Source of the DNA: Bacillota bacterium
Lineage (GTDB): Bacteria; Bacillota; Desulfitobacteriia; Desulfitobacteriales; JAJXUE01
DNA length: 64,000 bases
Assembly: GCA_021811155.1 (NCBI GenBank)
Contig: JAJZPO010000001.1
Span: 1,683 to 65,682 of the forward strand
Direction of reading: 5' to 3'
Under the pieces are notes generated by a model that saw only the letters and a list, made by a program, of their open reading frames with translations, was not told where the DNA came from and did no database searches. Of this stretch, positions 34,216 to 64,000 are shown one piece after another. The translations under genes and the position numbers were made by a program. Position 1 is the stretch's first letter; every line of letters starts with the position of its first letter.

Positions 34216-34233
34216 TTAAAGAAGTGATTAAAG
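34210..34233 (+). repeat. Perfect 12-bp tandem duplication (AAGTGATTAAAG x2)
   Basis: Read directly. The first copy contains the stop codon of ORF 33814-34215. Lies 38 nt upstream of the hydrogenase small-subunit start. Confidence 0.8.
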
Positions 34234-34270
34234 CAAAGACGAAAAAAGGATGTCAAGAGGGGGTTTAACA

Positions 34271-35341: not shown

Positions 35342-35356
35342 GGAGGCAGTGAAAGA

Positions 35357-36913: not shown

Positions 36914-36925
36914 GAGGCGAGTTGA

Positions 36926-41801: not shown

Positions 41802-41840
41802 GCCTGCCTAAATTGTAAAAGAAGAGAGGTGTAAGTATTC

Positions 41841-42443: not shown

Positions 42444-42464
42444 AGCCGGTAGAGAGGTGATATT

Positions 42465-43724: not shown

Positions 43725-43736
43725 ACCAACAACAAG

Positions 43737-43771
43737 AAACCTGGCAGCTCCGCAAGCCCGCCGGGTTTTTT
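43737..43771 (+). terminator. Putative terminator after clpX
   Basis: AAACCTGG pairs with CCGGGTTT (8 bp including one G-U), with a 16-nt loop, followed by a T run. Weak geometry. Confidence 0.4.
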
Positions 43772-43816
43772 GTCGAAGTTTCTAGGTACCTGGAACCATA
43801 AAGGGAGTCGAGAGAA

Positions 43817-45762: not shown

Positions 45763-45790
45763 CGGGGTAACCCTTAAGTTCAAGGAAGAG
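45759..45790 (+). repeat. 32-nt duplicate of an internal clpX segment (31/32 identical to 43477-43508)
   Basis: TTGACGGGGTAACCCTTAAGTTCAAGGAAGAG versus the clpX sequence TTGACGGGGTAACCCTTGAGTTCAAGGAAGAG. This copy contains the MFS stop codon. Confidence 0.85.
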
Positions 45791-45795
45791 ACAGA

Positions 45796-45830
45796 GTGAG
45801 TCAGTTGGGGACGGTTCTTGGTTGACTCAC
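45796..45830 (+). repeat. Conserved-core hairpin repeat (GTGAGTCA-stem type)
   Basis: GTGAGTCA...TGACTCAC encloses GGGGACGGTTCT (45807-45818). Twin copy at 50464-50498. Confidence 0.85.
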
Positions 45831-45838
45831 TTTCCGTG

Positions 45839-45905
45839 GGATAAAGGGGACGGTTCTGTTTGTCCTATCCACTAGGACCAACAGAACCGTCCCCTTTATC
45901 CTAGC
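45839..45905. repeat. Inverted pair of conserved-core repeats forming a ~30-bp-arm hairpin
   Basis: GGATAAAGGGGACGGTTCTGTTTGTCCTA (45839-45868) and its near reverse complement CTAGGACCAACAGAACCGTCCCCTTTATCCTAGC (45872-45905). Confidence 0.85.
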
Positions 45906-45999
45906 TTAGTTTTTTAGGCGGGAGGATAAATGGCGGAGGGCTGGCAATACTAGTAGGTGTTGGATTTATACTGCCTGTTTACCCGGAAAGGAGCGTACC

Positions 46000-47700: not shown

Positions 47701-47706
47701 GCAAAA

Positions 47707-47736
47707 CCGGGGCAAATGGCCCCGGCCTTTCTTTTT
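47707..47736 (+). terminator. Rho-independent terminator after lonB
   Basis: CCGGGGC, loop AAATG, GCCCCGG stem, followed by CCTTTCTTTTTG. Confidence 0.7.
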
Positions 47737-47760
47737 GTCCTGGTGACGCATGCTAAAACG

Positions 47761-47822
47761 ATTCTGAATTCCGACCTTGAATTGAGCCCATGAGCCGATT
47801 TCTGAATTCTGAGTTCCGACCC
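47761..47822 (-). repeat. Two reverse-orientation heptamer arrays
   Basis: ATTCTGAATTCCGACC (47761-47776) and GATTTCTGAATTCTGAGTTCCGACCC (47797-47822). Their reverse complements read GGTCGGAATTCAGAAT and GGGTCGGAACTCAGAATTCAGAAATC. Confidence 0.8.
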
Positions 47823-47970
47823 TTAAGTACAGCCTAAAAGTTTTGGTATACCCCCCGGGGGTTTTTGCCGAAGTGGGGTGGCGGGCCGCGGTAAATTATG
47901 CTAGAATATATTTACATCGGTTTTTGCAAACTAAGGGATGGATTTGTTTCAACCCTTGGAGGTGGAAAGT

Positions 47971-50382: not shown

Positions 50383-50395
50383 GGGAGGCTTATGG

Positions 50396-50427
50396 GTTGG
50401 ACTTCTGGGTCGGAATACAGAATGGGT
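50396..50427 (+). repeat. Degenerate heptamer array (GGTTGGACTTCTGGGTCGGAATACAGAATGGG)
   Basis: Lies 14 nt after the lon stop. Same ...TCGGAAT.CAGAATGGG ending as 7266-7291. Confidence 0.7.
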
Positions 50428-50432
50428 TGAGT

Positions 50433-50586
50433 AGGACACCGGGGACGGTTCTCGTTGTCCTAGTGAGTCAGTTGGGGACGGTTCTTGATTGACTCACTTT
50501 TGTCAGAGTCACTTGGGGATGGCGATTGGTTGACTCCCCCTTTGTGTCAGACGTGAGAGTGTCAGAGGGACTGTCCCCGTGACACC
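50433..50586 (+). repeat. Four concatenated hairpin repeats of different stem types
   Basis: TAGGACA..TGTCCTA (50433-50463, core at 50442); GTGAGTCA..TGACTCAC (50464-50498, core at 50475); GAGTCA..TGACTC with degenerate core GGGGATGGCGAT (50507-50537); GTGTCAGAGGGACTGTCCCCGTGACAC (50560-50586). Confidence 0.85.
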
Positions 50587-50609
50587 CTGAAAAGGCTGGT
50601 AATTACGGT

Positions 50610-51221
50610 ATGAAGATTAGTTCCAGTGAATTTGTCATCAGCGCGGTTGGGCCTAAACAGTACCCGGCAACCGGCCTGCCGGAGGTGGCTCTGGTGGGCC
50701 GCTCCAATGTAGGGAAGTCCTCGCTGATCAACTGCTTTGTGAACAGGCGTAATTTTGCCCGCACCAGTTCCAGACCTGGCAAGACGGGGACCTTAAATTA
50801 CTACCTTATCAACAATGCCTGGTATTTCGTTGATTTGCCAGGCTATGGTTTTGCCCAGGTCTCAAGGGAAACCAAGGCTCAATGGGCAAAAATGATTGAA
50901 GGATACCTGCAAAACCGTCAGGAGCTCCGGGCGGTAATTCAACTTGTGGATATCCGTCATCCTCCCTCGGAAGATGACCGTACAATGTACGACTGGTTGC
51001 TGAACAGGGGGATTCCTGTTCTGATTGTTGCTACCAAGGCGGACAAGATTTCGCGGGGCCAGACGGTCAGGCAGCTGCAGCAGATCAAACAGGCGCTGGA
51101 CTTGCCCGGCACGGATGTAATTCTGCCCTTTTCCGCCGAAACGGCCCTGGGGCGGGAAGAGCTGCACAGCCTGGTGGCTGAGATTACCGTGACGGAAGTT
51201 CCGGGTGAACCGACTGTATGA
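50610..51221 (+). CDS. engB: Ribosome-biogenesis GTPase EngB/YsxC/YihA
   Basis: GRSNVGKSSLIN G1 motif, DLPGYG G3 motif, TKADK G4 motif. Located downstream of lon as in Bacillus. Confidence 0.92.
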   Translation: MKISSSEFVISAVGPKQYPATGLPEVALVGRSNVGKSSLINCFVNRRNFARTSSRPGKTGTLNYYLINNAWYFVDLPGYGFAQVSRETKAQWAKMIEGYLQNRQELRAVIQLVDIRHPPSEDDRTMYDWLLNRGIPVLIVATKADKISRGQTVRQLQQIKQALDLPGTDVILPFSAETALGREELHSLVAEITVTEVPGEPTV

Positions 51222-51281
51222 GGCAGCGAAGCATATATTAAAACGAAGAGACTGTATCTGCCAGAATTGTAGGGGGAAATA

Positions 51282-52280
51282 ATGAGAGACATAGCTTATC
51301 TGTTGGTCAGCCTGGGTGTGATCCTGCTGGGAGCGGAGGCTTTTACCAACGGAGTGGAGTGGCTCGGCAAAAGGCTGGGACTGGGTGCGGGTGCTGTAGG
51401 GAGTATCCTGGCAGCTGTAGGCACTGCACTGCCGGAAACCATGGTGCCTGTTATCGCCATCGTCTTTGGAGGGGGGAACGTCCACGCCAGCGAAGTCGGC
51501 ATCGGCGCCATTCTCGGCGCCCCCTTTATGCTGGCGACCCTGGCCTTTTTTGTCTCGGGCGTGGCCGCGGTACTGACCCGTGTTGGGGGCAGGCGGCGCA
51601 AGTTCATGATTGTGGACAAATCTATTATTGAGCGGGACCTGCGCTTTTTCCTGATTTCGTATACTGTGGCAATTCTGGTGTCCTTTTACCCCGCCCATTG
51701 GGTGAAGACCATAGTGGCCCTGTTTTTGCTGGCTGCCTATGGGTTTTATGCCTTCCAGACAGTGCGGGATGGCAGGGGTGTGGATGAAGGGGATATTTCT
51801 GCCCTGTACCTGGCCCCCAGGTCCCATGCGCCGGGGACAGCCATAATCCTGGTGCAGGTCTTGGGCGCCCTTCTTTTGATTGTAGCCGGGGCCAGGACCT
51901 TTGTCAGCGCGGTGGAGAATATTTCCCTGGCTTACGGGATACCTCCTTTTGTGCTGTCCTTGATCATCACGCCGGTGGCCACGGAACTGCCGGAAAAGTT
52001 CAACAGCGTCATCTGGATCCGGCAGGGCAAGGATACCCTTGCTATGGGTAATATTACCGGCGCTATGGTATTTCAAAGCTCAATTATCCCGGCTATCGGA
52101 ATCATGCTGACGCCGTGGACCCTGGAACCGCTGGCCTTGGTCAGCGCGGGTCTGGCCCTGCTGGCTGCTGCCGTTCCCTTCTGGTTTGTGCGCACCCGGG
52201 GAAGGATCAGGCCGGTCGAGCTTCTCCTGGGGGGAGTTGTCTACCTGGTGTTTGTGTTTATGGTCTTTTGGATGCATTAG
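51282..52280 (+). CDS. Sodium/calcium exchanger (CaCA family) membrane protein
   Basis: Two alpha-repeat signatures (GTALPETMV and ATELPEKFNS...GNITGAMVFQSSI), about 10 TM helices. Confidence 0.8.
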   Translation: MRDIAYLLVSLGVILLGAEAFTNGVEWLGKRLGLGAGAVGSILAAVGTALPETMVPVIAIVFGGGNVHASEVGIGAILGAPFMLATLAFFVSGVAAVLTRVGGRRRKFMIVDKSIIERDLRFFLISYTVAILVSFYPAHWVKTIVALFLLAAYGFYAFQTVRDGRGVDEGDISALYLAPRSHAPGTAIILVQVLGALLLIVAGARTFVSAVENISLAYGIPPFVLSLIITPVATELPEKFNSVIWIRQGKDTLAMGNITGAMVFQSSIIPAIGIMLTPWTLEPLALVSAGLALLAAAVPFWFVRTRGRIRPVELLLGGVVYLVFVFMVFWMH

Positions 52281-52320
52281 AGACAAAAACCGGTACCGGG
52301 TGCCTAATGAGAACTTTTTT

Positions 52321-52348
52321 GAGGAAGCCTGCGGGCTTCCTCTTTTCC
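52321..52348 (+). terminator. Rho-independent terminator
   Basis: GAGGAAGCC, loop TGCG, GGCTTCCTC (9-bp perfect stem), followed by TTTTCC. Confidence 0.75.
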
Positions 52349-52471
52349 GTTGCAATGCCAATGCCTGCTTCGGGATACTCTTGACAGAGACATCCTGCGC
52401 CAACGAAGACTGTTCTGCAAAGAAAAATTTTAGATAATAGCAGGAATTTCGAAAGTTGCGTCAAATTAAGT

Positions 52472-52499
52472 ATCTAAACGTTTAGCTAAACGTTTAGAT
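52472..52499. promoter_or_regulatory. 28-bp perfect palindrome: tandem LacI-family operator (AT-CTAAACGTTTAG-CTAAACGTTTAG-AT)
   Basis: The sequence equals its own reverse complement. Each 12-mer has the AAACGTTT core typical of LacI/CcpA-type operators. Lies 55 nt upstream of the LacI-family gene. Confidence 0.7.
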
Positions 52500-52553
52500 G
52501 AGAGTGAAGCTGAATGTCCATAAGATCGATGCTTGTGATAGTGAGGTGGTTTG

Positions 52554-53564
52554 ATGGCAACCATGCGAGAAGTTGCCCAATTAGCGCGAGTGTCTGTAGC
52601 CACGGTTTCTGCAGTCATCAACAATTCCACGTTTGTCAGTGATGAACTGAAAGAAAGAGTGATCCAGGCTATTCAGGAACTTGACTACAGGCCGAATGCG
52701 CTGGCCCGCAGTTTGAAAAGCAGCCGGACTAGGTTGCTGGGCTTTATGTTGAGCAATATCACCAACCCCTTTTATCCGGAAATAGTTCTTGGAGCCGAGG
52801 ATGTTGCCAGAAAGGAGGGCTACAACATTTTTGTCTGTACTACGGATGATGATGAAGAGCGTGCACAGACGTATTTGGATTCAATGCTGGAACATCGGGT
52901 TGACGGCATGCTGGTTGGTACAGTGGATGAACTCAGCGACCCGACACTGCGCAAACTTAAAGCGGCCCAGGTACCGCTCGTCCTGGTAAACCGTTGGCCG
53001 GAAGGGTATAAGGGCAATACGGTAGTCCTCGACAATATTGCGGCCGGAATCTTAGCTACGAATCATCTGCTGTCTTTGGGTTACCGGGAAATTGCTTTTG
53101 TCGGAGCCTCACGAAAAATAATGACCAGCCGTCAGCGCGAAGACGGTTACCGGCAGGCGATGAAACTTGCAGGTATACCTGTGCCGGAACACTTTGTGCG
53201 GTACTGCGATTATTCAGAAGAGCGAGCTTATGAAGAGTTCAGGCGCATGGCTAAAACCGGTAGGGTACCGCGGGCGGTTTTTGCGGGAAATGACCTTATG
53301 GCTTTCGGCATTATCAGAGCTTTTTTGGATGAAGGGTTTAAGATTCCTGAGGATGTGGCTGTAGTTGGCTGCGACGACATCGCCTTTAGCAGCAAATTCT
53401 TTATTCCTCTAACAACGGTGCATTTCCACAAATATGAAATGGGGAAACTTAGCGCCGAACTCCTTATCAAGGCCATTAACAGTCCAGACAGTGAGGATTC
53501 GCAGAGCGATTTCATACAACTTAAACCGCACTTGGTTGTACGGAAAAGTTGCGGAGCAAATTGA
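52554..53564 (+). CDS. LacI-family transcriptional regulator
   Basis: MATMREVAQLARVSVATVSAVINN HTH and a periplasmic-binding-protein-like effector domain. SD GAGGTGG then ATG 52554 (TTG 52551 is also possible). Confidence 0.9.
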   Translation: MATMREVAQLARVSVATVSAVINNSTFVSDELKERVIQAIQELDYRPNALARSLKSSRTRLLGFMLSNITNPFYPEIVLGAEDVARKEGYNIFVCTTDDDEERAQTYLDSMLEHRVDGMLVGTVDELSDPTLRKLKAAQVPLVLVNRWPEGYKGNTVVLDNIAAGILATNHLLSLGYREIAFVGASRKIMTSRQREDGYRQAMKLAGIPVPEHFVRYCDYSEERAYEEFRRMAKTGRVPRAVFAGNDLMAFGIIRAFLDEGFKIPEDVAVVGCDDIAFSSKFFIPLTTVHFHKYEMGKLSAELLIKAINSPDSEDSQSDFIQLKPHLVVRKSCGAN

Positions 53565-53584
53565 ATTTTCTGGGGGGATGGAAA

Positions 53585-54769
53585 ATGCAAGAAGTAGTAA
53601 TTGTGGGCGGAGCCCGGACTCCTATCGGCACCATGGGCGGGATGATGAAAGATATTCACGCAGCCGACCTCGGTGCTCATGCTATTAGGGAGGCAGTCAA
53701 CAGGGCTGGCATCAGTGTTGAGATGATTGATGAAGTGATAGTGGGCAATGTTGGGCAAGTAGCGGAAAACGCCTTTATCGCGAGAATGTGCGCACTGAGG
53801 GCGGGACTCCCTGTTTCTTCTACCGCCTTCACCGTCAACCGTTTGTGCGGTTCCGGACTGCAGGCGGTCAACAGCGCGGTTCAGGAAATTCAGTCCGGCA
53901 ATGCCTCCGTCGTGGTGGCTGCCGGTACGGAGAATATGGATTTACTGCCATACTACGTGCGCAAAGGGCGCTATGGTTACCGGTTTGGTCACGACCGACT
54001 CGAGGATGGCCTGTTAACCGCCCTCACCGACCCTTTTGGCAATTACCCCATGGGGGTTACTGCGGAGGTTGTCGCCGAACGTTTCAATATTAACCGCGAG
54101 GACCAGGACCTGTTTGCTCTGACCAGCCAGGAACGCGCAATCCAGGCCATTGATAACGGGTATTTCAAGGATGAAATAGTACCTGTGGAAATCCGGGGGC
54201 GGCGAGGTGAAGTGTCAGTTTGTGACACCGATGAACATCCAAGGCGCGGCACAACACTGGAAAAGCTTGGCGCATTAAAACCTGCGTTTAAACCAGGCGG
54301 TACAGTTACAGCAGGCAATTCATCAGGGATCAACCAGGCTGCAGCGGCAGTAGTGATGATGACGGCCGCGAAGGCCGCGGAATTGGGCTTGCAGCCTCTG
54401 GCTTTTGTGCGAGAACAGGCTGTTGCCGGTGTTGAACCGGAAATCATGGGCTTCGCTCCGGCGCCTGCGGTGAAAAAGGTGCTGCAAAAAGCAGGCTTGA
54501 CTTTGGCCAACATCGATCTAATCGAGTTGAATGAGGCTTTCGCTTCGCAGTCCCTAGCCGTGATTCGCGATTTAGGGGCAGACATGGCTAAGGTCAATCC
54601 GCACGGCGGCGCCATTGCTTTGGGGCATCCTATAGGGGCAACCGGCGCTATCCTGACGGTAAAATCACTGTATGATATGCGGCGCCGCGGCCTGAAACGG
54701 GCTATTGTTACTATGTGCATCGGTGGAGGTCAGGGTATTGCAACAATAATTGAAAACGCTTCGCTATAG
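53585..54769 (+). CDS. Acetyl-CoA C-acetyltransferase (thiolase II type)
   Basis: MQEVVIVGGARTPIG; active-site NRLCGSGLQAV; GHPIGATG; CIGGGQG. ATG 53585 sits behind GGGGGGATGG. Confidence 0.92.
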   Translation: MQEVVIVGGARTPIGTMGGMMKDIHAADLGAHAIREAVNRAGISVEMIDEVIVGNVGQVAENAFIARMCALRAGLPVSSTAFTVNRLCGSGLQAVNSAVQEIQSGNASVVVAAGTENMDLLPYYVRKGRYGYRFGHDRLEDGLLTALTDPFGNYPMGVTAEVVAERFNINREDQDLFALTSQERAIQAIDNGYFKDEIVPVEIRGRRGEVSVCDTDEHPRRGTTLEKLGALKPAFKPGGTVTAGNSSGINQAAAAVVMMTAAKAAELGLQPLAFVREQAVAGVEPEIMGFAPAPAVKKVLQKAGLTLANIDLIELNEAFASQSLAVIRDLGADMAKVNPHGGAIALGHPIGATGAILTVKSLYDMRRRGLKRAIVTMCIGGGQGIATIIENASL

Positions 54770-54830
54770 GCGGCGCCGGAAAACACTGCCCACCCATTGG
54801 GATGCTCCGACTAAACAGGTGGTGATTTAA

Positions 54831-56330
54831 ATGAGCAATGCAGTGCAAATGAACAACATTACCAAAAGTTTTTCGGGTATTGCGGTGCTAAACGGCGTTG
54901 ATCTTACAGTGGCGGCAGGCGAAGTCGTTGCTTTGATGGGCGAAAACGGTGCCGGCAAGTCTACTCTGATGAAGATTTTGTGCGGTGTGCACGAACCGGA
55001 CAGCGGGTCTATTTTCGTCAACGGTAAGGAAGAGAAAGTTCCCACTCCCAGGAAGGCCTTCAGTATCGGTATCAGAGCCGTACACCAGGAACTAAGTCTG
55101 GTAGACCACCTTACCGTGGCATCCAATATCTTCCTTGGGCAGGAACCATCCCGCTTTGGCTTCATTGACCATGCGAAGATGCAGCAGATGTCCCAGGCAA
55201 TTTTGGATAGAAACGGATTTGAACTGGATGCTGGTCACAAAGTTGGGGATCTAAGTATTGCAAACAAGCAATTGGTGGAAATTGCCAAGGCAATTTTTGA
55301 TGACACCAAAACCCTGATTCTCGATGAACCAACCTCGGCTTTGACCAAAAAAGAAGTTGAAAGACTGTTTAAGGTAGTCGCCTTACTAAAGCAAAAAGGT
55401 GTTTCCATCGTCTACATTTCCCATAAATTAAATGAAGTGGTCCAAATTGCCGACCGTGTAGTTGTCTTGAAAGACGGGCAGAACTCCGGGGAATTGCCCA
55501 TAGAAAACGTTACCGAGGACAAGATTGTCAGAATGATGGTAGGGCGCGACATTGTTTATAGTCACACGGGAGCAGGCAAAGTATCTGATGAAAGTGTGTT
55601 AAAGGTCGAAGGAGTCAGCAGCATCGCTGTGAATGACATTAATTTCGACCTGCGCAAAGGTGAAATCCTCGGGGTGGCTGGATTAATGGGTTCTGGCAGA
55701 ACTGAACTTCTGGAAACACTGTTTGGAAAACGCAAGCTATTACAGGGTTCGGTATGGCTCAAGGGACAAAAGATAAACAACGCCTCACCCAGGCACTCGA
55801 TTAAAAGCGGTTTTGCTTTTGCTACAGAAGACCGTAAAGGAAACGGGCTGGTCCTGGATATGTCTGTCAAGCGGAATGTCTCGCTCCCCAGCCTAAACAG
55901 GTATGTTAAGTTTGGTTTTATCAATGAGACGGCCAGGACAAAAAACTCGGAAGAGAATGTGCGCAGTTTTAATGTCAAGACATCAGGCGTCAATCAATTG
56001 GTGCGGAATCTAAGCGGCGGAAACCAGCAAAAAGTGGTCCTGTCCAAATGGATTAATATTAGGCCAACGATTTTCCTGATCGATGAACCTACCAGGGGGA
56101 TTGATGTAGGGGCAAAAGCCGAAATCTACCAACTACTGAGGAATCTAGCTTCCGATGGCATTTCAATTATCATGGTTTCTTCCGAACTGCCGGAGATTTT
56201 AGCCCTGAGTGACCGTGTCCTGGTCATGAAAGGTGGCAGTGTGGCAGGAATTTTGGACCGCAGTGCTGCCAGCGAGGAGTCGGTATTGATGTTGGCGACA
56301 AAGGGGGAGAACCTGAATGGCAACGGCTAA
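54831..56330 (+). CDS. Sugar ABC transporter ATP-binding protein (RbsA/MglA-like, duplicated ABC domains)
   Basis: Two Walker A sites (GENGAGKST, GLMGSGRTE) and two signature motifs (second: LSGGNQQK). 499 aa. Confidence 0.9.
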   Translation: MSNAVQMNNITKSFSGIAVLNGVDLTVAAGEVVALMGENGAGKSTLMKILCGVHEPDSGSIFVNGKEEKVPTPRKAFSIGIRAVHQELSLVDHLTVASNIFLGQEPSRFGFIDHAKMQQMSQAILDRNGFELDAGHKVGDLSIANKQLVEIAKAIFDDTKTLILDEPTSALTKKEVERLFKVVALLKQKGVSIVYISHKLNEVVQIADRVVVLKDGQNSGELPIENVTEDKIVRMMVGRDIVYSHTGAGKVSDESVLKVEGVSSIAVNDINFDLRKGEILGVAGLMGSGRTELLETLFGKRKLLQGSVWLKGQKINNASPRHSIKSGFAFATEDRKGNGLVLDMSVKRNVSLPSLNRYVKFGFINETARTKNSEENVRSFNVKTSGVNQLVRNLSGGNQQKVVLSKWINIRPTIFLIDEPTRGIDVGAKAEIYQLLRNLASDGISIIMVSSELPEILALSDRVLVMKGGSVAGILDRSAASEESVLMLATKGENLNGNG

Positions 56331-57297
56331 AAACCGGCAGAGGGCAGCTAGAAACGTATTTTTGCAGAAGTGGGATGACTTGGGCAATATCCGGGGCTTG
56401 ATCGCGGGACTGTTGGCTCTGGTTATTCTGTTCAGCTTGAAGACTGGTTTTTTCCTGACACAGAACAACTTGATCGCAATTTCGGACCAGATTACCACGA
56501 TCGGCATCCTGGCCCTTGCTATGACCTTTGTAATTTTGTCCGGCGGAATTGATCTGGGTGTAGGTTCTGTCGTAGCCATGTCAGGTGTGCTTATCACGTA
56601 TTTCATGAGTCAAGGCATGGGGATGGTTCAGTCCATTCTACTCGGGGTTTTGCTCTGTACCATCATGGGTAGCCTGACAGGGGTAGTGATCACAAAATTC
56701 ATGCTCCAGCCGTTTATCGTTACTCTGGGTACTATGGGCGTTGCCAGAGGGGTGGCCATGGTAGTCTCTAACGCCAGCCCCATAACCCAGGTTACAGATG
56801 GTTTCAGCAATCTCGGCAGTGGCAGGATTGGCGTTATCCCTAACCCGGTACTTATTTTCGTCGTGTTGATTGTCCTCACTGTAATCCTTCTAAGGAAGAC
56901 GAAATTTGGTGAGTACACCTACGCCATCGGCGGCAACGAAGAAGCTGCCAGGCTAGCCGGCATACCCGTTAATTTCTACAAAATACTTATCTATACTTTG
57001 TCGGGATTCCTGGCAGGCTTTACCGGGTACTTGATGGCTTCCAAGTTTAACTCCGGCGTACCAACTCTTGGACAAGGGTACGAACTTGATGCCATTGCGG
57101 CCGTTGTCATCGGTGGGACTGCGTTATCGGGTGGAATAGGAGGAATCGGGGGAACCATCCTTGGGGTACTGATTATGGGGGTTCTAAACAATGGACTAAA
57201 CCTCATGGGGGTATCTGCCTACTGGCAGTATATTATAAAAGGCCTGCTGATCATTGTCGCTGTAATCATTGATAGCTACACCAGGAAAAAGAGGTGA
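56317..57297 (+). CDS. Sugar ABC transporter permease (RbsC-like)
   Basis: 326 aa, polytopic, with GGIDLGVGSV motif. 14-nt overlap with the ATPase gene. Confidence 0.88.
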   Translation: MATAKNRQRAARNVFLQKWDDLGNIRGLIAGLLALVILFSLKTGFFLTQNNLIAISDQITTIGILALAMTFVILSGGIDLGVGSVVAMSGVLITYFMSQGMGMVQSILLGVLLCTIMGSLTGVVITKFMLQPFIVTLGTMGVARGVAMVVSNASPITQVTDGFSNLGSGRIGVIPNPVLIFVVLIVLTVILLRKTKFGEYTYAIGGNEEAARLAGIPVNFYKILIYTLSGFLAGFTGYLMASKFNSGVPTLGQGYELDAIAAVVIGGTALSGGIGGIGGTILGVLIMGVLNNGLNLMGVSAYWQYIIKGLLIIVAVIIDSYTRKKR

Positions 57298-57398
57298 TGC
57301 CCCTTGCATCGGATGAACATGGAGGGAGTGATGAGAGCAGGATACGGGAGTGCAGAGCTCTTGATGGTGAGATTTGATTAAAGCGAGGAGGTAATGAA

Positions 57399-58535
57399 GT
57401 GAAAAAAGGTATTAAAATGATCACGGTGCTGTTAGCGGTGATGGTTGTGCTTTCTGCCTGTGGCACAGCCACTACACCAAGTGGCAGCGGTGACAATGGA
57501 AGCCAAAAGAAAACAGTTACTTTGGACTTTAATGGCAGAAAATTGAGTTCCGATGACGTATTTAAACTTGGCGAAATTCCGGGTCTGGGTATTGTCCACA
57601 CCAAAAAGCAGGGTCTCAAAATTGGTATGACAGTTTCGTCCCTGGAGTTTCCGGTTTTCGGTGTGATGCGAGATTTTGCCAAGACGCTGGCAGAAGCCGA
57701 CGGCAACCAATTCATATTTGTTAACGGCGAAAATGACATTGCCAAACAGGATGCGGCTCTTGACAACTTCATCACCCAAAAGGTCGATGTTGTAATCATC
57801 AACGCTGTGAACCCTCCGGCACAGCTGAAATCCTTACAAAAGCTGTTTGACGCTGGTATTAAGGTAGTTGCCCTAGACCGGGCCTTTGATACCGACAAAG
57901 TAAACCACGTGCTTGGCGATGACGAACAAGAGGGAAGAAATGCAGCAGACACCATCGCCAAGGCCCTTGACGGCAAGGGCAACGTGGTGGAGGTCACCGG
58001 ACAGCCTGGCGTTTCTCATGCCAACGACAATGCCAGAGGTTTTGCTGATGAACTGTCCAAAACCCCGGGATTGAAAATTGTAGCGCAGCAGTCCGGCAAC
58101 TATCAGAGGGACAAATCCTTTAACGTGATGCAGGATATTCTCAATGCCAACCCCAAAGGATCAATCCAGGCGGTCTTTGCCCACAACGACAATTCTGCTT
58201 TGGGCGCTCTTGCGGCCATCGAAGCTGCGGGCCGGGCTAAGGAAATGATCGTGATCGGCGGGGATGCTGATCAGGATGCTCTAAAGGCTATCAAAGAAGG
58301 CAGGATGTACGGCTCTGATGACCGTTCGCCAAGTATCATGGGAGCTACTGCCTATGAGGTGGCGGCCGAGATTCTGAACGGTGACGGAGGCAAGTTGCCG
58401 TATGCTATCCTGGTACCCCCTGTTATGATTACAAAGGACACCCTTGACCGGGCCAATGACCCATTCATGGCTTTGGAGCAGCACCAAAAGAAAATTATTA
58501 ACACCTTGGCCGATTATCAGGCACGCCAAAAATAA
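57399..58535 (+). CDS. Sugar ABC transporter substrate-binding lipoprotein (RbsB-like type I PBP)
   Basis: Signal peptide with lipobox (VVLSACG) and a PBP type-I fold sequence. GTG start behind GAGGAGG. Confidence 0.85.
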   Translation: MKKGIKMITVLLAVMVVLSACGTATTPSGSGDNGSQKKTVTLDFNGRKLSSDDVFKLGEIPGLGIVHTKKQGLKIGMTVSSLEFPVFGVMRDFAKTLAEADGNQFIFVNGENDIAKQDAALDNFITQKVDVVIINAVNPPAQLKSLQKLFDAGIKVVALDRAFDTDKVNHVLGDDEQEGRNAADTIAKALDGKGNVVEVTGQPGVSHANDNARGFADELSKTPGLKIVAQQSGNYQRDKSFNVMQDILNANPKGSIQAVFAHNDNSALGALAAIEAAGRAKEMIVIGGDADQDALKAIKEGRMYGSDDRSPSIMGATAYEVAAEILNGDGGKLPYAILVPPVMITKDTLDRANDPFMALEQHQKKIINTLADYQARQK

Positions 58536-58650
58536 TTAGGTTTTTCCCCTCCTTTACTTATTGGAGCAAGCGGCGGATCCGCACAAGGGTCCGCCGTGCT
58601 TCACCCTTTTTGCGAAGCGTAGAAATTTAATGCCAAGGGAGGAAGCACCA

Positions 58651-59421
58651 TTGGGACGCTTGGATGACAAAGTCGCAATTGTAACCGGCGGGGGATCGGG
58701 TATCGGCCGGGGAATTGCGAAAATGTATGCTTCAGAGGGTGCAACCGTGGTAGTGGCAGATATTAACCCGGAGGCGCAAAAGGTAGCGGATGAGATAGCT
58801 GAAAAAGGCGGAAGAGCGTTATTTGAGCTCGCTGACGTGTCTGCATCCGCAGATGCTGAGCGCGTGGTAAAAACCACTATAGCGAGATTCGGCAGACTTG
58901 ACATACTGGTAAACAATGCGGGCATCGAGCTGACCAAAAGCCTGCTGGAAACGCAAGAAGAGGAGTGGGACAAGGTCGTCCGAATCAATTTGCGGAGCGT
59001 CTTTCTCATGTCCAGATTTGCGGCAGACCATTTTGTCCATGCGGGTGGGGGCGTAATCATCAACATGGGATCAGTCACGGCAAAGGTAGGCTTTCTGAAT
59101 TACCCAGCCTATACGGCTACAAAGGGAGCTATTCATGCTTTCACGAGACAGATGGCCATGGAATTGGCCCAGTATAAAATCCGGGTTAACGTGATTTTCC
59201 CGGGCACAATCAGGACTCCATTGGCGATACGCAATTTTCTTTCGACAAACCCTGATTTGGAAGCGGCATTGGCGGAAAGCGCTGCGCTGCATTTGACAGG
59301 TAGAATAGGCGAACCTGAGGACGTGGCTTACCTGGCCGTTTATCTGGGATCAGAAGAGTCATCTTTTGTCACCGGCCAGGAGTTCGGTGTAGACGGAGGT
59401 TTTACTATCAAAGGAACTTAG
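58651..59421 (+). CDS. Short-chain dehydrogenase/reductase (SDR)
   Basis: TGGGSGIGRG cofactor motif, NNAG, catalytic YTATKGA (YxxxK). SD GGGAGG then TTG 58651 (ATG 58630 is an alternative). Confidence 0.88.
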   Translation: MGRLDDKVAIVTGGGSGIGRGIAKMYASEGATVVVADINPEAQKVADEIAEKGGRALFELADVSASADAERVVKTTIARFGRLDILVNNAGIELTKSLLETQEEEWDKVVRINLRSVFLMSRFAADHFVHAGGGVIINMGSVTAKVGFLNYPAYTATKGAIHAFTRQMAMELAQYKIRVNVIFPGTIRTPLAIRNFLSTNPDLEAALAESAALHLTGRIGEPEDVAYLAVYLGSEESSFVTGQEFGVDGGFTIKGT

Positions 59422-59440
59422 TCCAAGGGAGCGATGAAGT

Positions 59441-60295
59441 TTGAACTTACCGAAAAAAGGCAAGGACTTGGTGGGTGAGATTAGCGCTTATCGGGTCCCG
59501 ACGGGCGGATTGGCGATCTGGCACTTAAACCAGGCAGGATTTGTGGTCAAGAATCAACAAGTGATTATTTACATTGACCCCTATTTGTCGAATGACCTGG
59601 TAAACGCAACACGAGGCATGCCGGACCAGCATACCAAAATATATGAACCCCTGTTGAAGGGCTCTGACATTGACAATGCGGATTACGTTTTATGCACCCA
59701 TGATCATTTAGACCACCTTGATCCCACTACTGTTTTGGAAATTTCCCGAGCTGCCGAAAAGACAAGGTTTGTCGTGCCGTTTCAGGCCGGCAGAACAATG
59801 CAAGAGTTGGGTATCGATACGAAACGCATTATCTATCTTGACGCCGGCCAATCGCTCTCTTTGCCTGACATGACAGTGACCGCCTTGAAGGGAGCTCACG
59901 AGAGTTTTGACCAAGATGAGCAGTTCGGCTTTGCCTACCTTGGTTACCATATAACTTTGGGTGAATACCGTATTTTTCATGCCGGTGATACTGTTCTGCA
60001 TTCCGAATTGGTTGAAACAGCCAAAAAGCATCCAGTTGATGTAGCATTTTTGCCAATCAATGGCAGGGAGTATCACAAGCTGCAAAAGAACATCCGGGGC
60101 AACATGAATTTCAAAGAAGCAGCTGACTTCGCGGTGGAACTGGGCGCCGATATAGTGATTCCGTGTCACTGGGGGATGCACTATGAAAATACTGAGAGAC
60201 CGGGGAATTTTGTCGACTATATCACTGAACGATATCGTTTTCAGAAATTCCGGGTCATGGTACCGGGAGACAGGCTTATTTATTTTAGGGATTAA
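59441..60295 (+). CDS. MBL-fold metallo-hydrolase (UlaG/lactonase-like)
   Basis: CTHDHLDHLD (HxHxDH) zinc motif. 284 aa. TTG start behind AAGGGAG. Confidence 0.75.
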   Translation: MNLPKKGKDLVGEISAYRVPTGGLAIWHLNQAGFVVKNQQVIIYIDPYLSNDLVNATRGMPDQHTKIYEPLLKGSDIDNADYVLCTHDHLDHLDPTTVLEISRAAEKTRFVVPFQAGRTMQELGIDTKRIIYLDAGQSLSLPDMTVTALKGAHESFDQDEQFGFAYLGYHITLGEYRIFHAGDTVLHSELVETAKKHPVDVAFLPINGREYHKLQKNIRGNMNFKEAADFAVELGADIVIPCHWGMHYENTERPGNFVDYITERYRFQKFRVMVPGDRLIYFRD

Positions 60296-60335
60296 AGATC
60301 TGCAGTGGGCAACAGGATGTTGGAGGGGGTAAACC

Positions 60336-61184
60336 ATGACAATCAACAATACGGCAGTCATCGGAGCAGGGCTCATGGGGACCGGTATTGTGCAAGTTAT
60401 TGCTGAAGCGGGTTATCAGGTTGTCTGGGTAGACATTTCGGCCGAACAACTGTCCAAAGGCTTTGACAATATATCGCGGCAATTAAACCGTAAGCTGGAA
60501 AAAGGCAAGTGTGAGAAACAACACGTGGACGCTACCTTGGGCCGGATTAGCCTCGCCGGTACCCTAGAGGCAGTAGGTTCGGCAGATCTTGTGGTTGAAG
60601 CAGTGCCGGAAGTGATGGAACTTAAGAAGAGTATTTTCCGGCAGCTGGATGAAATTACACGGAGCGACACGATTTTGCTCTCCAATACATCAGGACTGTC
60701 TATTTCAGCACTTGGCGCTGTTACCCATAAGCCTGAAAAGGTAATTGGGGCCCATTTCTTTTACCCTGCTCCGTTAATGGGACTTGTGGAAGTCATTCCC
60801 GGACTTCTTACGGCCCGGGAAGTCTTCAATACAGTTATGGAGTTTAGTCGCAGCTTGGGTAAGGAACCGGTAGAATGTAAGGATTTCCCGGGATTCATTG
60901 TTAACCGTCTTCTGGTTCCTATGGTGAACGAGGCGATTTTTCTACTGATGGAGGGAATCAAGCCTGAAGATATAGACACTGCTATGAAACTGGGAGCCAA
61001 CCATCCTATGGGGCCCATTGCTTTGGCTGACTTTGTCGGCCTGGACACATTGCTGGCAACTATGCAGGGACTTTATGAGGGTTTTCGCGGTTCCAAATAC
61101 CGGCCGTGTCCCCTGCTGATCAAGATGGTTGAAGCCGGAAACCTTGGGCGCAAGACGGGCAGGGGTTTTTACAACTACCAGTAG
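60336..61184 (+). CDS. hbd: 3-hydroxyacyl-CoA (3-hydroxybutyryl-CoA) dehydrogenase
   Basis: AVIGAGLMGTGIVQV Rossmann motif, SNTSGLSI, PGFIVNRLL, NHPMGP. Confidence 0.9.
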   Translation: MTINNTAVIGAGLMGTGIVQVIAEAGYQVVWVDISAEQLSKGFDNISRQLNRKLEKGKCEKQHVDATLGRISLAGTLEAVGSADLVVEAVPEVMELKKSIFRQLDEITRSDTILLSNTSGLSISALGAVTHKPEKVIGAHFFYPAPLMGLVEVIPGLLTAREVFNTVMEFSRSLGKEPVECKDFPGFIVNRLLVPMVNEAIFLLMEGIKPEDIDTAMKLGANHPMGPIALADFVGLDTLLATMQGLYEGFRGSKYRPCPLLIKMVEAGNLGRKTGRGFYNYQ

Positions 61185-61213
61185 AATGCTGAGGAAGCGA
61201 GAAGAGATACACC

Positions 61214-62791
61214 ATGAAAAACAAGCTCGTTCCGGTAGAAGTGGCAGCAGACTATATTAAGAGCGGCCATACCTTGGCGACCTGCGGATTTACCCTGATG
61301 GGGGCATGTGAAACTATCCTGACAGAGGTTGAGAAGCGTTTTTTGACCACGGGAAATCCCTCCGGACTTACCCTGTTGCATGCAGCAGGCCACAGCGACC
61401 GTGTTAATGGCATTCAGCACCTGGCCCACAGAGGTTTGGTAAAAAGAATTGTCGGCTCCCATTGGGGCCTGGCGCCTCTTTGGGGCGAATTGATCCATGA
61501 TAATGAAGTTGAGGCTCATTGCTTGCCCCAGGGTCAAATGGTCCATCTGTTCAGGGCTATGGCCTCAGGGAAGCCGGGTAACTTCTCCAAGGTGGGACTC
61601 GGAACCTTTGTCGATCCCAGGCTTGAAGGTGGCATGATGAACGAGCAGGCCCGGGAGCATGGTCCTTTGGTGGAAGTCATAACTATTGGCGGCGAGGAAT
61701 TCCTTTTTTACAGGGAGATTCCAATTGATGTGGCTCTCATTCGCGGCACCACGGCCGATGAAAATGGCAATATCACCATGGAAGAAGAGGCGATTAAGCT
61801 TGAGGCCATTTCTATTGCCCAAGCGGTAAAAAGGTATAACGGCAAGGTGATTGTTCAGGTCAAAAATTTTGCCCGCTCAGGGACCCTACACCCCAAAGAT
61901 GTAGTGGTTCCAGGGATTTATGTAGATGCGGTGGTGCTGGCCCAGTCGCCGGAAAGAGAGCACCGGCAAACCGCAAGCGCCTTTTTTGACCCGGCCTATG
62001 CGGGGAATCTGAAGATCCCGGCTGCGGTAATTGACCCGATACCGCTCGATATCCGCAAAGTAATTGGGCGCAGGGGTGTAATGGAACTGTCGCCAGGCGC
62101 CATTGTAAATTTGGGTACCGGAATTCCAGGCGACACAGTCGGGCCTGTTGCCAGTGAAGAAGGGATTTTGGAAGACATTTTTCTTACCGTTGAGTCTGGA
62201 GTAATCGGTGGCATACCGGCTGGCGGAACGGATTTCGGCATTGCTAAAAATGCTGAGGCTATTATTGAACATGGCTATCAATTTGATTACTATAACGGGG
62301 CCGGAGTGGACATAACCTTTATGGGAATGGCCGAAGCGGATTCACTTGGCAGTGTCAACTCAAGCAAATTTGGCAGTCGGGCTGTCGGCTGTGGCGGATT
62401 CATTGACATTACCCAGCCGGCAAAAAAAGTAGTTTTTCTTGGGACCTTTACTGCCGGTGGGCTTGAGGTTGGCATCGCGGATGGCAAGCTGCGAATAATC
62501 CGCGAAGGGAAGATCAAGAAGTTCCTCAGGCAAGTAGGCCAGGTTACTTTTAGCGGTCAATATGCCGTAGCAGTGAAGCAACCGGTCTATTACGTAACGG
62601 AACGGGCTGTGTTTGTTTTGACCGGCGAGGGTATTAAGCTCATTGAATATGCCCCCGGGATTGACATTGAAAAGGATATTTTCGCCCAGATGGAATTCCG
62701 GCCGCTAATAGCGTCAAATCTGCGCTTGATGTCTCCCGAGATTTTTTTGGCCCGGGCTATGGGTTTCATAAATCAGTTTTATAGCAGCTAG
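61214..62791 (+). CDS. Fused-subunit family I CoA-transferase (acyl-CoA:acetate/3-ketoacid, YdiF-like)
   Basis: 525 aa, with alpha- and beta-like halves in one chain. Central TVESGVIGG contains the expected catalytic Glu context. Confidence 0.8.
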   Translation: MKNKLVPVEVAADYIKSGHTLATCGFTLMGACETILTEVEKRFLTTGNPSGLTLLHAAGHSDRVNGIQHLAHRGLVKRIVGSHWGLAPLWGELIHDNEVEAHCLPQGQMVHLFRAMASGKPGNFSKVGLGTFVDPRLEGGMMNEQAREHGPLVEVITIGGEEFLFYREIPIDVALIRGTTADENGNITMEEEAIKLEAISIAQAVKRYNGKVIVQVKNFARSGTLHPKDVVVPGIYVDAVVLAQSPEREHRQTASAFFDPAYAGNLKIPAAVIDPIPLDIRKVIGRRGVMELSPGAIVNLGTGIPGDTVGPVASEEGILEDIFLTVESGVIGGIPAGGTDFGIAKNAEAIIEHGYQFDYYNGAGVDITFMGMAEADSLGSVNSSKFGSRAVGCGGFIDITQPAKKVVFLGTFTAGGLEVGIADGKLRIIREGKIKKFLRQVGQVTFSGQYAVAVKQPVYYVTERAVFVLTGEGIKLIEYAPGIDIEKDIFAQMEFRPLIASNLRLMSPEIFLARAMGFINQFYSS

Positions 62792-62857
62792 AATTCATAA
62801 TGTGGACGGCGTAAGAGATAACTGCCGGGTTTTCCGTCTTCGGCAGGGGAGGAAACA

Positions 62858-63358
62858 GTGGAGGCGATACTGACGCGCAGAAGTATCCGTAAGTTTGAGG
62901 CGCAACCGGTTCCGGCTGAGACGATCAACGAGCTTTTACAGGCGGCCATGTGCGCTCCTTCAGCAAGCGATGAGAGACCGTGGCATTTTGTGCTGATCGA
63001 TGACCGCAATATCTTTGCTCAAATACACAAATTCCATCCATTTGCCCAGGCCCTAAAAACGGCTCTGTGTGCTATCCTGGTTTGCGGCGACGAAAGACTG
63101 GAAAAAAACAAGGGATTTTGGGTTCAGGATTGCGCTGCGGCAGTAGAGAACATTTTAATTGCTGCCCAGGCTAAAAAGCTAGGGGCTACTTGGTTGGGAG
63201 TGTATCCTTTAAGTGAGAGGATTGAACCGATGCGCAAGCTCCTACATATTCCAAACCATGTCCATCCTTTCGCACTGATTCCGGTTGGGTTCCCGGCGGA
63301 GCAAAAACCTCCAGTCAACAGATTTGAAAGTACCAGGGTTCACTTCAATAAGTGGTAA
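62858..63358 (+). CDS. Nitroreductase-family flavoprotein
   Basis: ILTRRSIRKF N-terminal signature, 166 aa. GTG start behind GGGGAGG. Confidence 0.85.
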   Translation: MEAILTRRSIRKFEAQPVPAETINELLQAAMCAPSASDERPWHFVLIDDRNIFAQIHKFHPFAQALKTALCAILVCGDERLEKNKGFWVQDCAAAVENILIAAQAKKLGATWLGVYPLSERIEPMRKLLHIPNHVHPFALIPVGFPAEQKPPVNRFESTRVHFNKW

Positions 63359-63435
63359 GAGGATAACATTTAGTATGGGGATTGCGGGGTGGCATGGTAC
63401 GTGGCACTGAGATCGGATTTTGCATCGACCGGCCT

Positions 63436-64000
63436 TCACTTCAATTCGGCGGCGGGACTCTTTGCGCTTGGTTTTAGTTCGCTTACGAGCATGCCGGCGA
63501 GGATCAGGCAGGCGCCGAGGGCTGCGGCGGGGCGCAGGGTTTCGCCCGCCAAAAAGTAGGCAAAGACGGCGGAAAAGACGGGTTCGGAAGCGAAAATTAT
63601 GGCAGTTCGGGTGGGGGTGGTGAACTGCTGCATCCTGGTCTGAACCAGGAAGGCCAGCGATGTGGCAGGAATGGCGGTAACCAGCAGTCCGACCCACACT
63701 TCTCCCGTAAATACCGGTGGCTGAGGTTCCCAAATCAGGCCGGCGAGACCTGATGCTGCCGCAACCACAGTGATCTGGACAAAGGCCAGGACCATGGGGT
63801 CATGCTGCGGGGCAAAACGGGCTACGGCCATAATCTGTAGGGCAAAACTAACGGCGCATAACAGGATGAGGAGGTCCCCGTGGTTCAGGCTGAAGCCCGC
63901 TCCAAGGGTCAGCAGGGCCAGTCCTGCGGTGGCGCTGAGCACTCCCAGGGATGTAAACAGGCCCGGCCAGCTGCGGGTGGTCAGGGTAACGAGGAGCGGC
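63436..64000 (-). CDS. DMT-superfamily (EamA-like) transporter, 5'-truncated by the window end
   Basis: Hydrophobic EamA-like C-terminal half. The frame stays open and hydrophobic (…PLLVTLTTRSWPGLFTSLG…) from 63943 to nt 64000, so the gene continues beyond the window. Confidence 0.7.
   Translation of the reverse strand, partial: PLLVTLTTRSWPGLFTSLGVLSATAGLALLTLGAGFSLNHGDLLILLCAVSFALQIMAVARFAPQHDPMVLAFVQITVVAAASGLAGLIWEPQPPVFTGEVWVGLLVTAIPATSLAFLVQTRMQQFTTPTRTAIIFASEPVFSAVFAYFLAGETLRPAAALGACLILAGMLVSELKPSAKSPAAELK

Follow-up and report, generated by a model that had tools for sequence, protein, structure and literature searches.

A LacI-type operon of a Bacillota bacterium proposed to link sugar-type import to CoA-dependent cleavage of a deoxypentose acid

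What substrate could be shared by a ribose-type sugar importer, a short-chain dehydrogenase/reductase (SDR), a metallo-beta-lactamase (MBL)-fold hydrolase and a set of coenzyme A (CoA) enzymes, all encoded behind one LacI-family regulator? The question is raised by nine genes lying on the forward strand at about 52.5-62.8 kb of a 64,000-nucleotide stretch of contig JAJZPO010000001.1 (Bacillota bacterium, Desulfitobacteriales; assembly GCA_021811155.1), the whole of which we call the window. Our preferred answer, held tentatively and at somewhat less than an even chance, is that the operon imports a deoxypentose (2-deoxyribose most likely, or its lactone or acid) and splits its CoA thioester into acetyl-CoA and glyceryl-CoA, the latter going on to glycerate. 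The general mechanism, comprising uptake, formation of a 3-hydroxy acid, oxidation as the CoA thioester and thiolytic 2+3 cleavage to glycerate, appears well supported by comparative evidence; 2-deoxyribose itself is the most economical guess at the substrate and is unproven.

The nine-gene block and its relatives

Pfam and NCBIfam searches upheld the families that a first-pass annotation had assigned to this single same-strand block, and the gaps between its genes are indeed short, being in gene order 20, 61, -14, 101, 115, 19, 40 and 29 bp. A Shine-Dalgarno-like sequence precedes each of the nine genes, and no terminator-like site lies within any intergenic gap of the block. Identical genes were found on several metagenome contigs, whose gene calls fix the starts of the LacI and SDR genes. 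The features are as follows.

52321-52342, forward strand: terminator-like hairpin (9-bp stem, 6 GC pairs) with TTTTCC after it as T-run
52472-52499, no strand: tandem LacI-type candidate operator, perfect 28-bp palindrome ATCTAAACGTTTAGCTAAACGTTTAGAT
52554-53564, forward strand: LacI-family regulator (ATG start from the gene call on an identical metagenome contig)
53585-54769, forward strand: thiolase, BktB-like acetyl-CoA C-acyltransferase (Pfam, NCBIfam)
54831-56330, forward strand: double ATPase of a CUT2-type ABC importer, RbsA-like (Pfam, NCBIfam)
56317-57297, forward strand: permease of the CUT2-type ABC importer, RbsC-like (Pfam, NCBIfam)
57399-58535, forward strand: RbsB-like lipoprotein substrate-binding protein of the ribose-binding-protein family (Pfam, NCBIfam, PDB search)
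58562-58603, forward strand: GC-rich hairpin 3' of the binding-protein gene, with a T-run at a distance (folding against shuffles)
58651-59421, forward strand: classical SDR of 256 aa, in place of the 286-aa open reading frame (Pfam, NCBIfam)
59441-60295, forward strand: MBL-fold metal hydrolase of the UlaG-like branch (Pfam, NCBIfam, structure model)
60336-61184, forward strand: 3HCDH/Hbd-like NAD-dependent L-3-hydroxyacyl-CoA dehydrogenase (Pfam, NCBIfam, PDB search)
61214-62791, forward strand: fused alpha/beta family-I CoA-transferase, YdiF/Pct-like (Pfam, NCBIfam, PDB search)

In the route that we propose, the repressor would occupy the tandem operator (52472-52499) until released by an effector, either the sugar or an intermediate. 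The CUT2 ABC system and its lipoprotein binding protein would, judging from their family, take up a substrate in ring form; the SDR would oxidise C1 to give a lactone, and the UlaG-like hydrolase would open the lactone to a 2-deoxypentonate, the hydrolase alone sufficing if the lactone itself is imported. The YdiF-like CoA-transferase would then make the acyl-CoA with acetyl-CoA or the product glyceryl-CoA as donor, so that no ATP-dependent ligase would be needed and glycerate would be freed in the same reaction. A dehydrogenase, by default the Hbd-like enzyme or alternatively the SDR if the 3-hydroxyl is D-type, would produce the 3-oxoacyl-CoA, which the BktB-like thiolase would cleave to acetyl-CoA and glyceryl-CoA, and glycerate would finally be phosphorylated by a glycerate kinase. 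Among the block proteins, Pfam searches found no enoyl-CoA hydratase (crotonase), acyl-CoA dehydrogenase, sugar kinase or AMP-forming ligase.

The passage from sugar through acid, CoA ester and 3-oxoacyl-CoA to thiolysis was already sketched in the first-pass annotation, and the glycerate-consuming enzyme that such a route predicts is present in the relatives of the operon, though not in the window. Five related clusters (L005/L013 with L094, L093, L004, L010 and L014) include a glycerate kinase (PF02595): it stands at the cluster end in L005/L013 and L094, between the MBL and CoA-transferase genes in L093, a Desulfitobacteriaceae metagenome-assembled genome, and at the end of L004, a cluster without an importer. 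As background, a glycerate kinase occurred within 10 kb at 1 of about 75 loci whose CoA-transferases are at most 59% identical; in the scan of genome contigs with the CoA-transferase, five loci were close (L012-L016) and the rest, generic YdiF-like genes at 43-53% identity, formed this background set. The recurrence of the kinase at variable positions is the strongest argument that the C3 unit would end as glycerate, the predicted product of the pathway.

The related clusters are of two types. Window-type clusters, with MBL proteins 70-72% identical to that of the window, were found only in uncultured Bacillota and retain the importer, LacI, SDR, MBL, Hbd, thiolase and CoA-transferase genes in three different gene orders; each of these relatives (L004, L005/L013, L093 and L094) has the glycerate kinase in addition. 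Acid-type clusters, from cultured Bacillales, encode a thiolase, Hbd and CoA-transferase 55-79% identical to those of the window and carry Liv-type ABC or TRAP carboxylate importers in place of the sugar importer, SDR and MBL protein, a replacement that fits a carboxylic acid intermediate common to both cluster types. Neighbourhood conservation, which the first-pass annotation had suggested as a check, thus extends to the gene set in window-type relatives; the order is shuffled, and in acid-type clusters the front end is exchanged. The cultured examples are these.

Fodinisporobacter ferrooxydans (L010, CP089291): unrelated CUT2 importer, LacI, PF04199 hydrolase, glycerate kinase, thiolase, SDR, Hbd, CoA-transferase, MBL protein, second CoA-transferase
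Paenibacillus alginolyticus (L014): LacI, thiolase, SDR, second CoA-transferase, Liv-type ABC system, MaoC, CoA-transferase, Hbd, glycerate kinase
Oceanobacillus alkalisoli (L015): TRAP transporter
Bacillus cihuensis (L011): Liv-type ABC system, no Hbd

All four carry two YdiF-like CoA-transferases, 55-58% and 61-74% identical to that of the window. The MaoC protein of P. alginolyticus is a hydratase, the PF04199 protein of F. ferrooxydans is a 'cyclase' hydrolase, and the PF00753 MBL protein of the latter could be a lactonase or a thioesterase.

Enzyme assignments and the identity of the substrate

The CoA enzymes are clearly assigned to their families. The thiolase scores 468 bits on TIGR01930 (cutoff 241), its top model is the BktB subfamily with 501 bits (cutoff 565), and it reaches 438 bits against solved structures; its catalytic Cys/His/Cys motifs are readable in the translation, and it is 77-79% identical to the thiolases of the Fodinisporobacter and B. 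cihuensis clusters. The Hbd-like dehydrogenase scores 386 bits on NF004474 (cutoff 408) and 294 bits to the Hbd structure 6aa8, with PaaH and human HADH also matched, and its Ser/His/Glu/Asn catalytic set is readable. The CoA-transferase matches E. coli YdiF (PDB 2ahu) over its full length with 418 bits and has the fused alpha and beta domains of family I, with PF01144, pcaI/pcaJ-type halves and an ESG catalytic-glutamate motif read as 'VESGVIGG'. In engineered dihydroxy-acid pathways, Pct and BktB handle glycolyl-CoA (PMC9118988), which places hydroxylated short acyl-CoAs within reach of these families.

The SDR scores 258 bits on the 'glucose 1-dehydrogenase' subfamily model NF005559 (cutoff 215), and its YxxxK motif is readable in the translation. 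Its gene always stands beside the MBL gene in window-type clusters, whose SDRs share 70-84% mutual identity. In the MBL protein, the metal ligands H87/H89/D91/H92/H153/H180/D183/H243 are invariant among 46 homologs. Sequence searches of the PDB gave only remote matches; the AlphaFold model (pLDDT 94) is structurally closest to 3bv6 and to UlaG (2wyl/2wym), the nearest structure whose function is known, with TM values of 0.80-0.83, a resemblance that is at the level of the fold only, the protein scoring 60 bits on the NCBIfam UlaG model (cutoff 306). Relatives of the MBL protein at 45-49% identity adjoin an SDR, 37-42% identical to that of the window, and a CUT2 importer, followed by other downstream enzymes and no CoA enzymes. 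The recurrence of the pairing in clusters without CoA enzymes favours a dehydrogenase-lactonase pair, albeit with SDRs of only that modest identity, and the roles that we propose are the SDR as a putative sugar 1-dehydrogenase yielding the lactone, the MBL hydrolase, from its modelled fold, as a candidate lactonase. As an alternative, the SDR could be a D-specific 3-hydroxy-acid or acyl-CoA dehydrogenase. Its top PDB match, the (3R)-hydroxyacyl-CoA dehydrogenase 2et6, was not used, as the two SDR domains of that chain may inflate the score. A glyoxalase-II-like glyceryl-CoA thioesterase was rejected as the principal role of the MBL protein, given its UlaG-like branch and the pairing of its relatives with SDRs where CoA enzymes are absent. 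The gene context of a Domibacillus MBL homolog (44% identity) was uninformative.

The importer is of ribose type and is not a ribose system by score. Its ATPase falls below the equivalog cutoffs of the xylose, ribose, arabinose and allose ATPases, and on the ribose equivalogs the scores against cutoffs are 278/531 for RbsR, 536/745 for RbsA, 266/398 for RbsC and 144/337 for RbsB. RbsR is also the best NCBIfam model of the LacI protein, whose score, being so far under the cutoff, indicates that it is not an RbsR ortholog. Neither RbsD nor a PfkB-type ribokinase was found in the block by Pfam or NCBIfam, so by scores and gene content the block lies outside the definition of an rbs operon. The best PDB match of the binding protein is 2ioy, with 190 bits. 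Aligned to E. coli RbsB, it retains D89, R90, N190, D215 and F16 and carries the substitutions N13->F, F15->V, R141->N, F164->Y and Q235->R; these ten residues, which we take to be the ribose-pocket contacts of RbsB, are thus half altered. It also has an insertion of about 45 residues after the lipoprotein signal and a C-terminal extension of about 33 residues, both conserved in its few relatives. Among 5.8 billion proteins, this clade comprises 8 relatives at 49% identity or more, the next being at 38% or less, and a scan of metagenome contigs with the binding-protein alignment gave nothing above 37% identity and no new gene contexts.

With the CoA enzymes so close to their ketone-body or butyrate counterparts, one might take the block for unrelated neighbours, a ribose-type importer and repressor lying beside an acetoacetate or 3-hydroxybutyrate module in which the SDR would be a 3-hydroxybutyrate dehydrogenase. 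The SDR indeed scores 203 bits on the model for that enzyme, which does not reach the cutoff of 258. Yet the thiolase gene lies upstream and the Hbd and CoA-transferase genes downstream of the transporter genes, with one operator before all of them, an arrangement that argues against two unrelated operons; the gene set stays together through all three orders, glycerate-kinase linkage and LacI control are foreign to ketone-body metabolism, and the transporter and regulator fall short of the ribose cutoffs, with ribokinase and RbsD both missing. We therefore consider a chance juxtaposition very improbable.

Several points weigh against the deoxyribose route itself. Every step of it is read from genes and their comparison. 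A tblastn search of the 64-kb window with two of the cluster glycerate kinases as queries found no such gene; the window is the only variant that lacks one within reach. The acid-type clusters carry a FabG-like SDR beside the thiolase, an enzyme that the window-type clusters lack. Orthologs of the importer elsewhere (ATPase 61-64%, permease 69-77% and binding protein 49-65% identical) adjoin an iron-containing alcohol dehydrogenase and an aldehyde dehydrogenase at locus L097, and in Peribacillus (L096) an iron-containing alcohol dehydrogenase and a CoA-transferase of 48% identity, thiolase and Hbd being absent from the vicinity. From these contexts, the ligand of the importer may be something other than deoxyribose. 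Finally, the Hbd-like protein is a canonical member of an L-specific family, which does not match the D-type 3-hydroxyl of 2-deoxy-D-ribonyl-CoA.

The contexts at L096 and L097 lend support to a reading in which the enzyme logic is the same and the substrate is different, a polyol or another deoxy sugar that is oxidised to a 3-hydroxy acid. The differing dehydrogenases next to the importer suggest that different organisms oxidise its ligand to an acid in different ways, and the small binding-protein clade with its unusual extensions would suit such a ligand as well. Against this, the glycerate kinase and thiolase point to a C5 acid that is split 2+3, and few natural compounds other than a 2-deoxypentonate fit; we hold the reading to be rather unlikely. 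The dehydrogenases at L097 and at L096 (Peribacillus sp. NPDC058002) are a GbsB-like iron-containing alcohol dehydrogenase and a betaine-aldehyde-dehydrogenase-like protein, all under their equivalog cutoffs, and the importer orthologs of L096 lie 5 kb from a unit of CdaR, glycerate kinase and glyceraldehyde-3-phosphate dehydrogenase genes.

The stereochemical point deserves closer consideration. By our reasoning, the 3-hydroxyl of 2-deoxy-D-ribonate is D-type, as in (R)-3-hydroxybutyrate, and the 3HCDH/Hbd family acts on L-type hydroxyls, such as those of (S)-3-hydroxyacyl-CoA, L-carnitine and L-gulonate. The assignment of 3-oxidation of 2-deoxyribonate to Hbd in the first-pass annotation is thus called into question, all the more with the FabG-like SDR of the acid-type clusters absent from the window. 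Those FabG-like SDRs share 67-80% mutual identity and score above the FabG equivalog cutoff, and the FabG enzyme type is normally D-specific. There are possible ways out: the Hbd may accept a D-type alcohol, the SDR may perform the 3-oxidation while the lactone is imported, or the substrate may have an L-type 3-hydroxyl, as in 2-deoxy-D-threo-pentose or in an ordinary pentose of xylo or lyxo configuration.

Were the lactone imported, a neutral, furanose-like 2-deoxypentonolactone would be taken up and opened by the MBL hydrolase inside the cell, the SDR would oxidise the D-type 3-hydroxyl of the acid or CoA ester, the Hbd would serve the L-type 3-epimer, and the CoA-transferase might act as a 3-oxoacid CoA-transferase; the end products would be unchanged. 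By our reasoning this resolves the mismatch, and both cluster types would then have one SDR and one Hbd. Family-I CoA-transferases are also the classic 3-oxoacid transferases, and in Pseudomonas simiae an SDR carries out the 3-oxidation of deoxyribonate, lactone uptake having been considered there too (PMC6365646). The window-type SDRs, however, are only 34-38% identical to the acid-type FabG-like SDRs, that of the window, at 34-37%, scores best on glucose-1-dehydrogenase-type and not on FabG models, and the SDR-MBL adjacency in clusters without CoA enzymes suggests a dehydrogenase paired with a lactonase; on balance we judge lactone import unlikely.

The first-pass annotation held that the chemistry only works for a 2-deoxy-aldonate. 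This is too strong: BktB-type thiolases accept glycolyl-CoA as an extender unit (PMC9118988), which makes cleavage of a 2-hydroxy-3-oxoacyl-CoA chemically possible. An ordinary pentose, D-xylose or D-lyxose, could accordingly be converted to the pentonate and its CoA ester, which Hbd would oxidise at C3 before the thiolase splits it into glycolyl-CoA and D-glyceryl-CoA. The L-type 3-hydroxyl of D-xylonate or D-lyxonate would fit the Hbd, and the D-configured C4 would give D-glycerate, again by our own reasoning, so that this reading alone would reconcile the L-specificity of the Hbd with a D-glycerate end point without recourse to a rare sugar. Xylose, moreover, is the C3 epimer of ribose, and the binding protein is RbsB-like with an altered pocket; the glycerate-kinase linkage would be explained equally. 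Yet no related cluster contains glycolate-utilisation genes, the carbon yield would be poor next to that of the standard pentose routes, thiolysis of a 2-hydroxy-3-oxoacyl-CoA has no natural catabolic precedent, and the published genetic precedent concerns a 2-deoxy acid. We regard the pentose as distinctly unlikely; if it were the substrate, the operon would represent an undescribed kind of pentose route, in which a fully hydroxylated sugar acid is cleaved in a beta-oxidation-like manner. Autoinducer-2, hexose 2-deoxy sugars, tetronates and butyrate synthesis were rejected, as each either offers no carboxylate for the transferase, does not end in glycerate, or would need the absent crotonase and acyl-CoA dehydrogenase.

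Operator, boundaries and surroundings of the unit

The palindrome upstream of the regulator gene, reported as perfect by the first-pass annotation, is confirmed as two 14-nt arms (52472-52485 and 52486-52499) that are 100% complementary with zero spacer, for which our own arithmetic gives a chance expectation of about 2e-4 per 64 kb. Two 12-bp palindromes, CTAAACGTTTAG, set end to end, make it up and are the only exact copies in the window; the terminator that ends the gene before it lies upstream. The tandem design with a CTAAnCGnTTAG core is kept across window-type and acid-type clusters: L093 has the same 24-nt core within a 36-nt palindrome, L005 and L094 have CTAACGCGTTAGCTAACCGGTTAG, P. 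alginolyticus has GCGAAACGTTTAGCTAAACGTTTCGC, and O. alkalisoli has GTTAAACGTTTAGCTAATCGTTTAAT directly after a TTGACA/TATAAT promoter. Single or dispersed related sites are found in Fodinisporobacter (L010), B. cihuensis (L011) and L012. The regulator has the helix-turn-helix domain PF00356 at residues 4-49 and a periplasmic-binding-protein-like, sugar-binding-type PF00532/PF13377 effector domain at residues 63-334, and it is 60% identical to the L093 regulator. A palindrome with a central CG that lies upstream of the genes it would control and recurs before related clusters provides good comparative evidence that 52472-52499 is a genuine LacI-type operator and that the clusters form one conserved regulon. 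One more operator-like sequence, at 47834, contains 2 mismatches, and its occurrence is no more than chance would yield. A sigma-70 consensus scan found no convincing promoter at the operator, its counts being at chance level, and an Rfam scan of 50000-64000 matched no RNA family. In L094 two copies of the tandem operator (337-348 and 434-445), separated by about 97 bp, precede the transporter genes, a doubling that might permit repressor looping.

The 5' boundary of the unit is set by the hairpin at 52321-52342, which closes the upstream gene for a Na/Ca exchanger (PF01699). Within the unit, the hairpin region after the binding-protein gene folds with -46.6 kcal/mol (z = -4.3; 0 of 200 shuffles equally stable), and the hairpin at 58562-58603 is possibly an mRNA stabiliser or a partial terminator. 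Beyond the CoA-transferase gene, by 66 bp, lies a nitroreductase-family gene (62858-63358) that has its own promoter-like site (62765-62794); no related cluster contains this gene, and in several of them glycerate kinase occupies that position. Third-position GC is 0.51-0.58 in the operon genes (52554-62791) against 0.59-0.68 in the flanking housekeeping genes (40521-52280), and the window's thiolase, Hbd and CoA-transferase resemble Bacillales genes more closely, at 69-79% identity, than their counterparts in the sister clusters, at 54-69%. Composition and the closeness of the CoA enzymes to Bacillales together hint at module exchange or recent acquisition of the operon.

The remainder of the window gives some indication of the host. 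Genes for glutamate fermentation by the methylaspartate pathway lie at 1916-11118 and encode a MutL-like reactivase, the E chain of glutamate mutase, a methylaspartate ammonia-lyase and a class-I fumarase/mesaconase; interspersed with them are genes for an HGD-D-like protein, an activator ATPase of BcrAD/BadFG type and an AtuA-like protein. At 28155-37519 the window encodes HypB-like, HypF, HypD and HypE-like proteins followed by the small and large subunits of a NiFe hydrogenase and a b-type cytochrome. The methylaspartate pathway and the hydrogenase mark the host as a strict anaerobe. The region 40521-51221 is a housekeeping run, tig-clpP-clpX to lon-engB, typical of Bacillota, in which the names tig, clpP, clpX and lon follow only from the size and order of the reading frames, and engB from its translation; the run is interrupted by genes for a glycerophosphodiester phosphodiesterase (43817-44545) and an MFS transporter (44542-45762). 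Long open reading frames without a Pfam match at E <= 1e-8 (12066-13502, 15580-16500, 21887-22849 and 24819-25394) lie among glycosyltransferase, UDP-glucose dehydrogenase and RNase PH genes, and a 1178-residue RND transporter of the AcrB family is encoded at 17969-21505 on the reverse strand, opposite to nearly all other genes of the window.

Relation to known systems

The operon shares features with several characterised systems. With E. coli rbsDACBK-rbsR it has in common the CUT2 ABC architecture and LacI-family control through a palindromic operator; it differs in lacking RbsD and ribokinase and in the four proteins that score far under the ribose equivalog cutoffs. Acetoacetate and short-chain acyl-CoA modules (YdiF, AtoDA-AtoB and the clostridial Thl-Hbd) have the same enzyme families and catalytic residues, whereas the window combines them with sugar-type regulation, an interleaved sugar importer and, in relatives, a link to glycerate kinase, and has neither crotonase nor acyl-CoA dehydrogenase. 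The MBL hydrolase belongs to the same fold branch as UlaG, the L-ascorbate-6-phosphate lactonase, which hydrolyses a sugar-acid lactone, and shows the full set of metal motifs, but it is shorter than UlaG and only about 20% identical to it. The engineered Pct-BktB-PhaB/Hbd-TesB route to 3,4-dihydroxybutyrate (Martin et al. 2013, reviewed in PMC9118988) employs the same families on hydroxylated short acyl-CoAs and so indicates that the chemistry is feasible; unlike the window route, it is a synthetic pathway that works in the direction of biosynthesis and has one carbon fewer.

Closest in logic are the oxidative deoxyribose pathways. In P. simiae, Paraburkholderia bryophila and Burkholderia phytofirmans (PMC6365646), the sugar passes through lactone, deoxyribonate and 3-keto acid to a C2 unit and glyceryl-CoA and then to glycerate kinase, with an SDR and a lactonase, as proposed here; the P. 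simiae type differs in that neither its beta-keto-acid cleavage enzyme nor its molybdenum-dependent sugar dehydrogenase is matched in the block by Pfam or NCBIfam. The first-pass annotation saw CoA-ester chemistry as the distinguishing feature of the window, but a CoA-dependent oxidation of deoxyribonate has already been proposed for cluster BWI76_RS23695-23730 of Klebsiella michiganensis M5al (Price et al. 2019, PMC6365646, Fig. S1). In that scheme a CoA synthetase, a beta-hydroxyacyl-CoA dehydrogenase and a thiolase yield acetyl-CoA and D-glyceryl-CoA, followed by a glycerate CoA-transferase and glycerate kinase; the cluster also holds a lactonase and MFS transporters, the route rests on mutant fitness only, and deoxyribose fails to support growth of K. 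michiganensis (PMC6365646). GapMind lists the step from glyceryl-CoA to glycerate as unknown and has not taken up the Klebsiella route (PMC9007349), and our literature search found no later paper on such a CoA route in Firmicutes. The question of 3-hydroxyl stereochemistry applies to the published Klebsiella proposal too.

If the deoxyribose route is correct, strictly anaerobic Bacillota and many aerobic Bacillales would draw carbon from the deoxyribose of DNA that is decaying or has suffered oxidative damage, with no need of the DeoC aldolase, conserving the thioester as acetyl-CoA. The operon would also provide the first biochemical handle on a CoA-dependent route so far known from transposon fitness in one Klebsiella strain, and its CoA-transferase, by recycling CoA onto the incoming acid, would be a candidate for the missing GapMind step (PMC9007349). 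Cultured carriers of related clusters are F. ferrooxydans, P. alginolyticus DSM 5050, O. alkalisoli and B. cihuensis.

Compared with the published description of the Klebsiella cluster, the window likewise keeps dehydrogenase, thiolase and CoA-transferase genes together. It differs in having no ATP-dependent CoA synthetase (no AMP-binding ligase among ten proteins by Pfam), so that activation would have to be by the CoA-transferase, and in having no MFS transporter in the block and no glycerate kinase in the window, the latter being present in L004, L005/L013, L093, L094, L010 and L014. What the block does have is an ABC importer of sugar type, together with the SDR, the MBL-fold hydrolase and the LacI regulator. 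The new elements relative to Klebsiella are thus the front end of sugar-type ABC importer, SDR and UlaG-like MBL hydrolase, the proposed activation by a transferase only, without an ATP-dependent ligase, a LacI regulon with an unusual tandem operator, and a host range of strict anaerobes and Bacillales.

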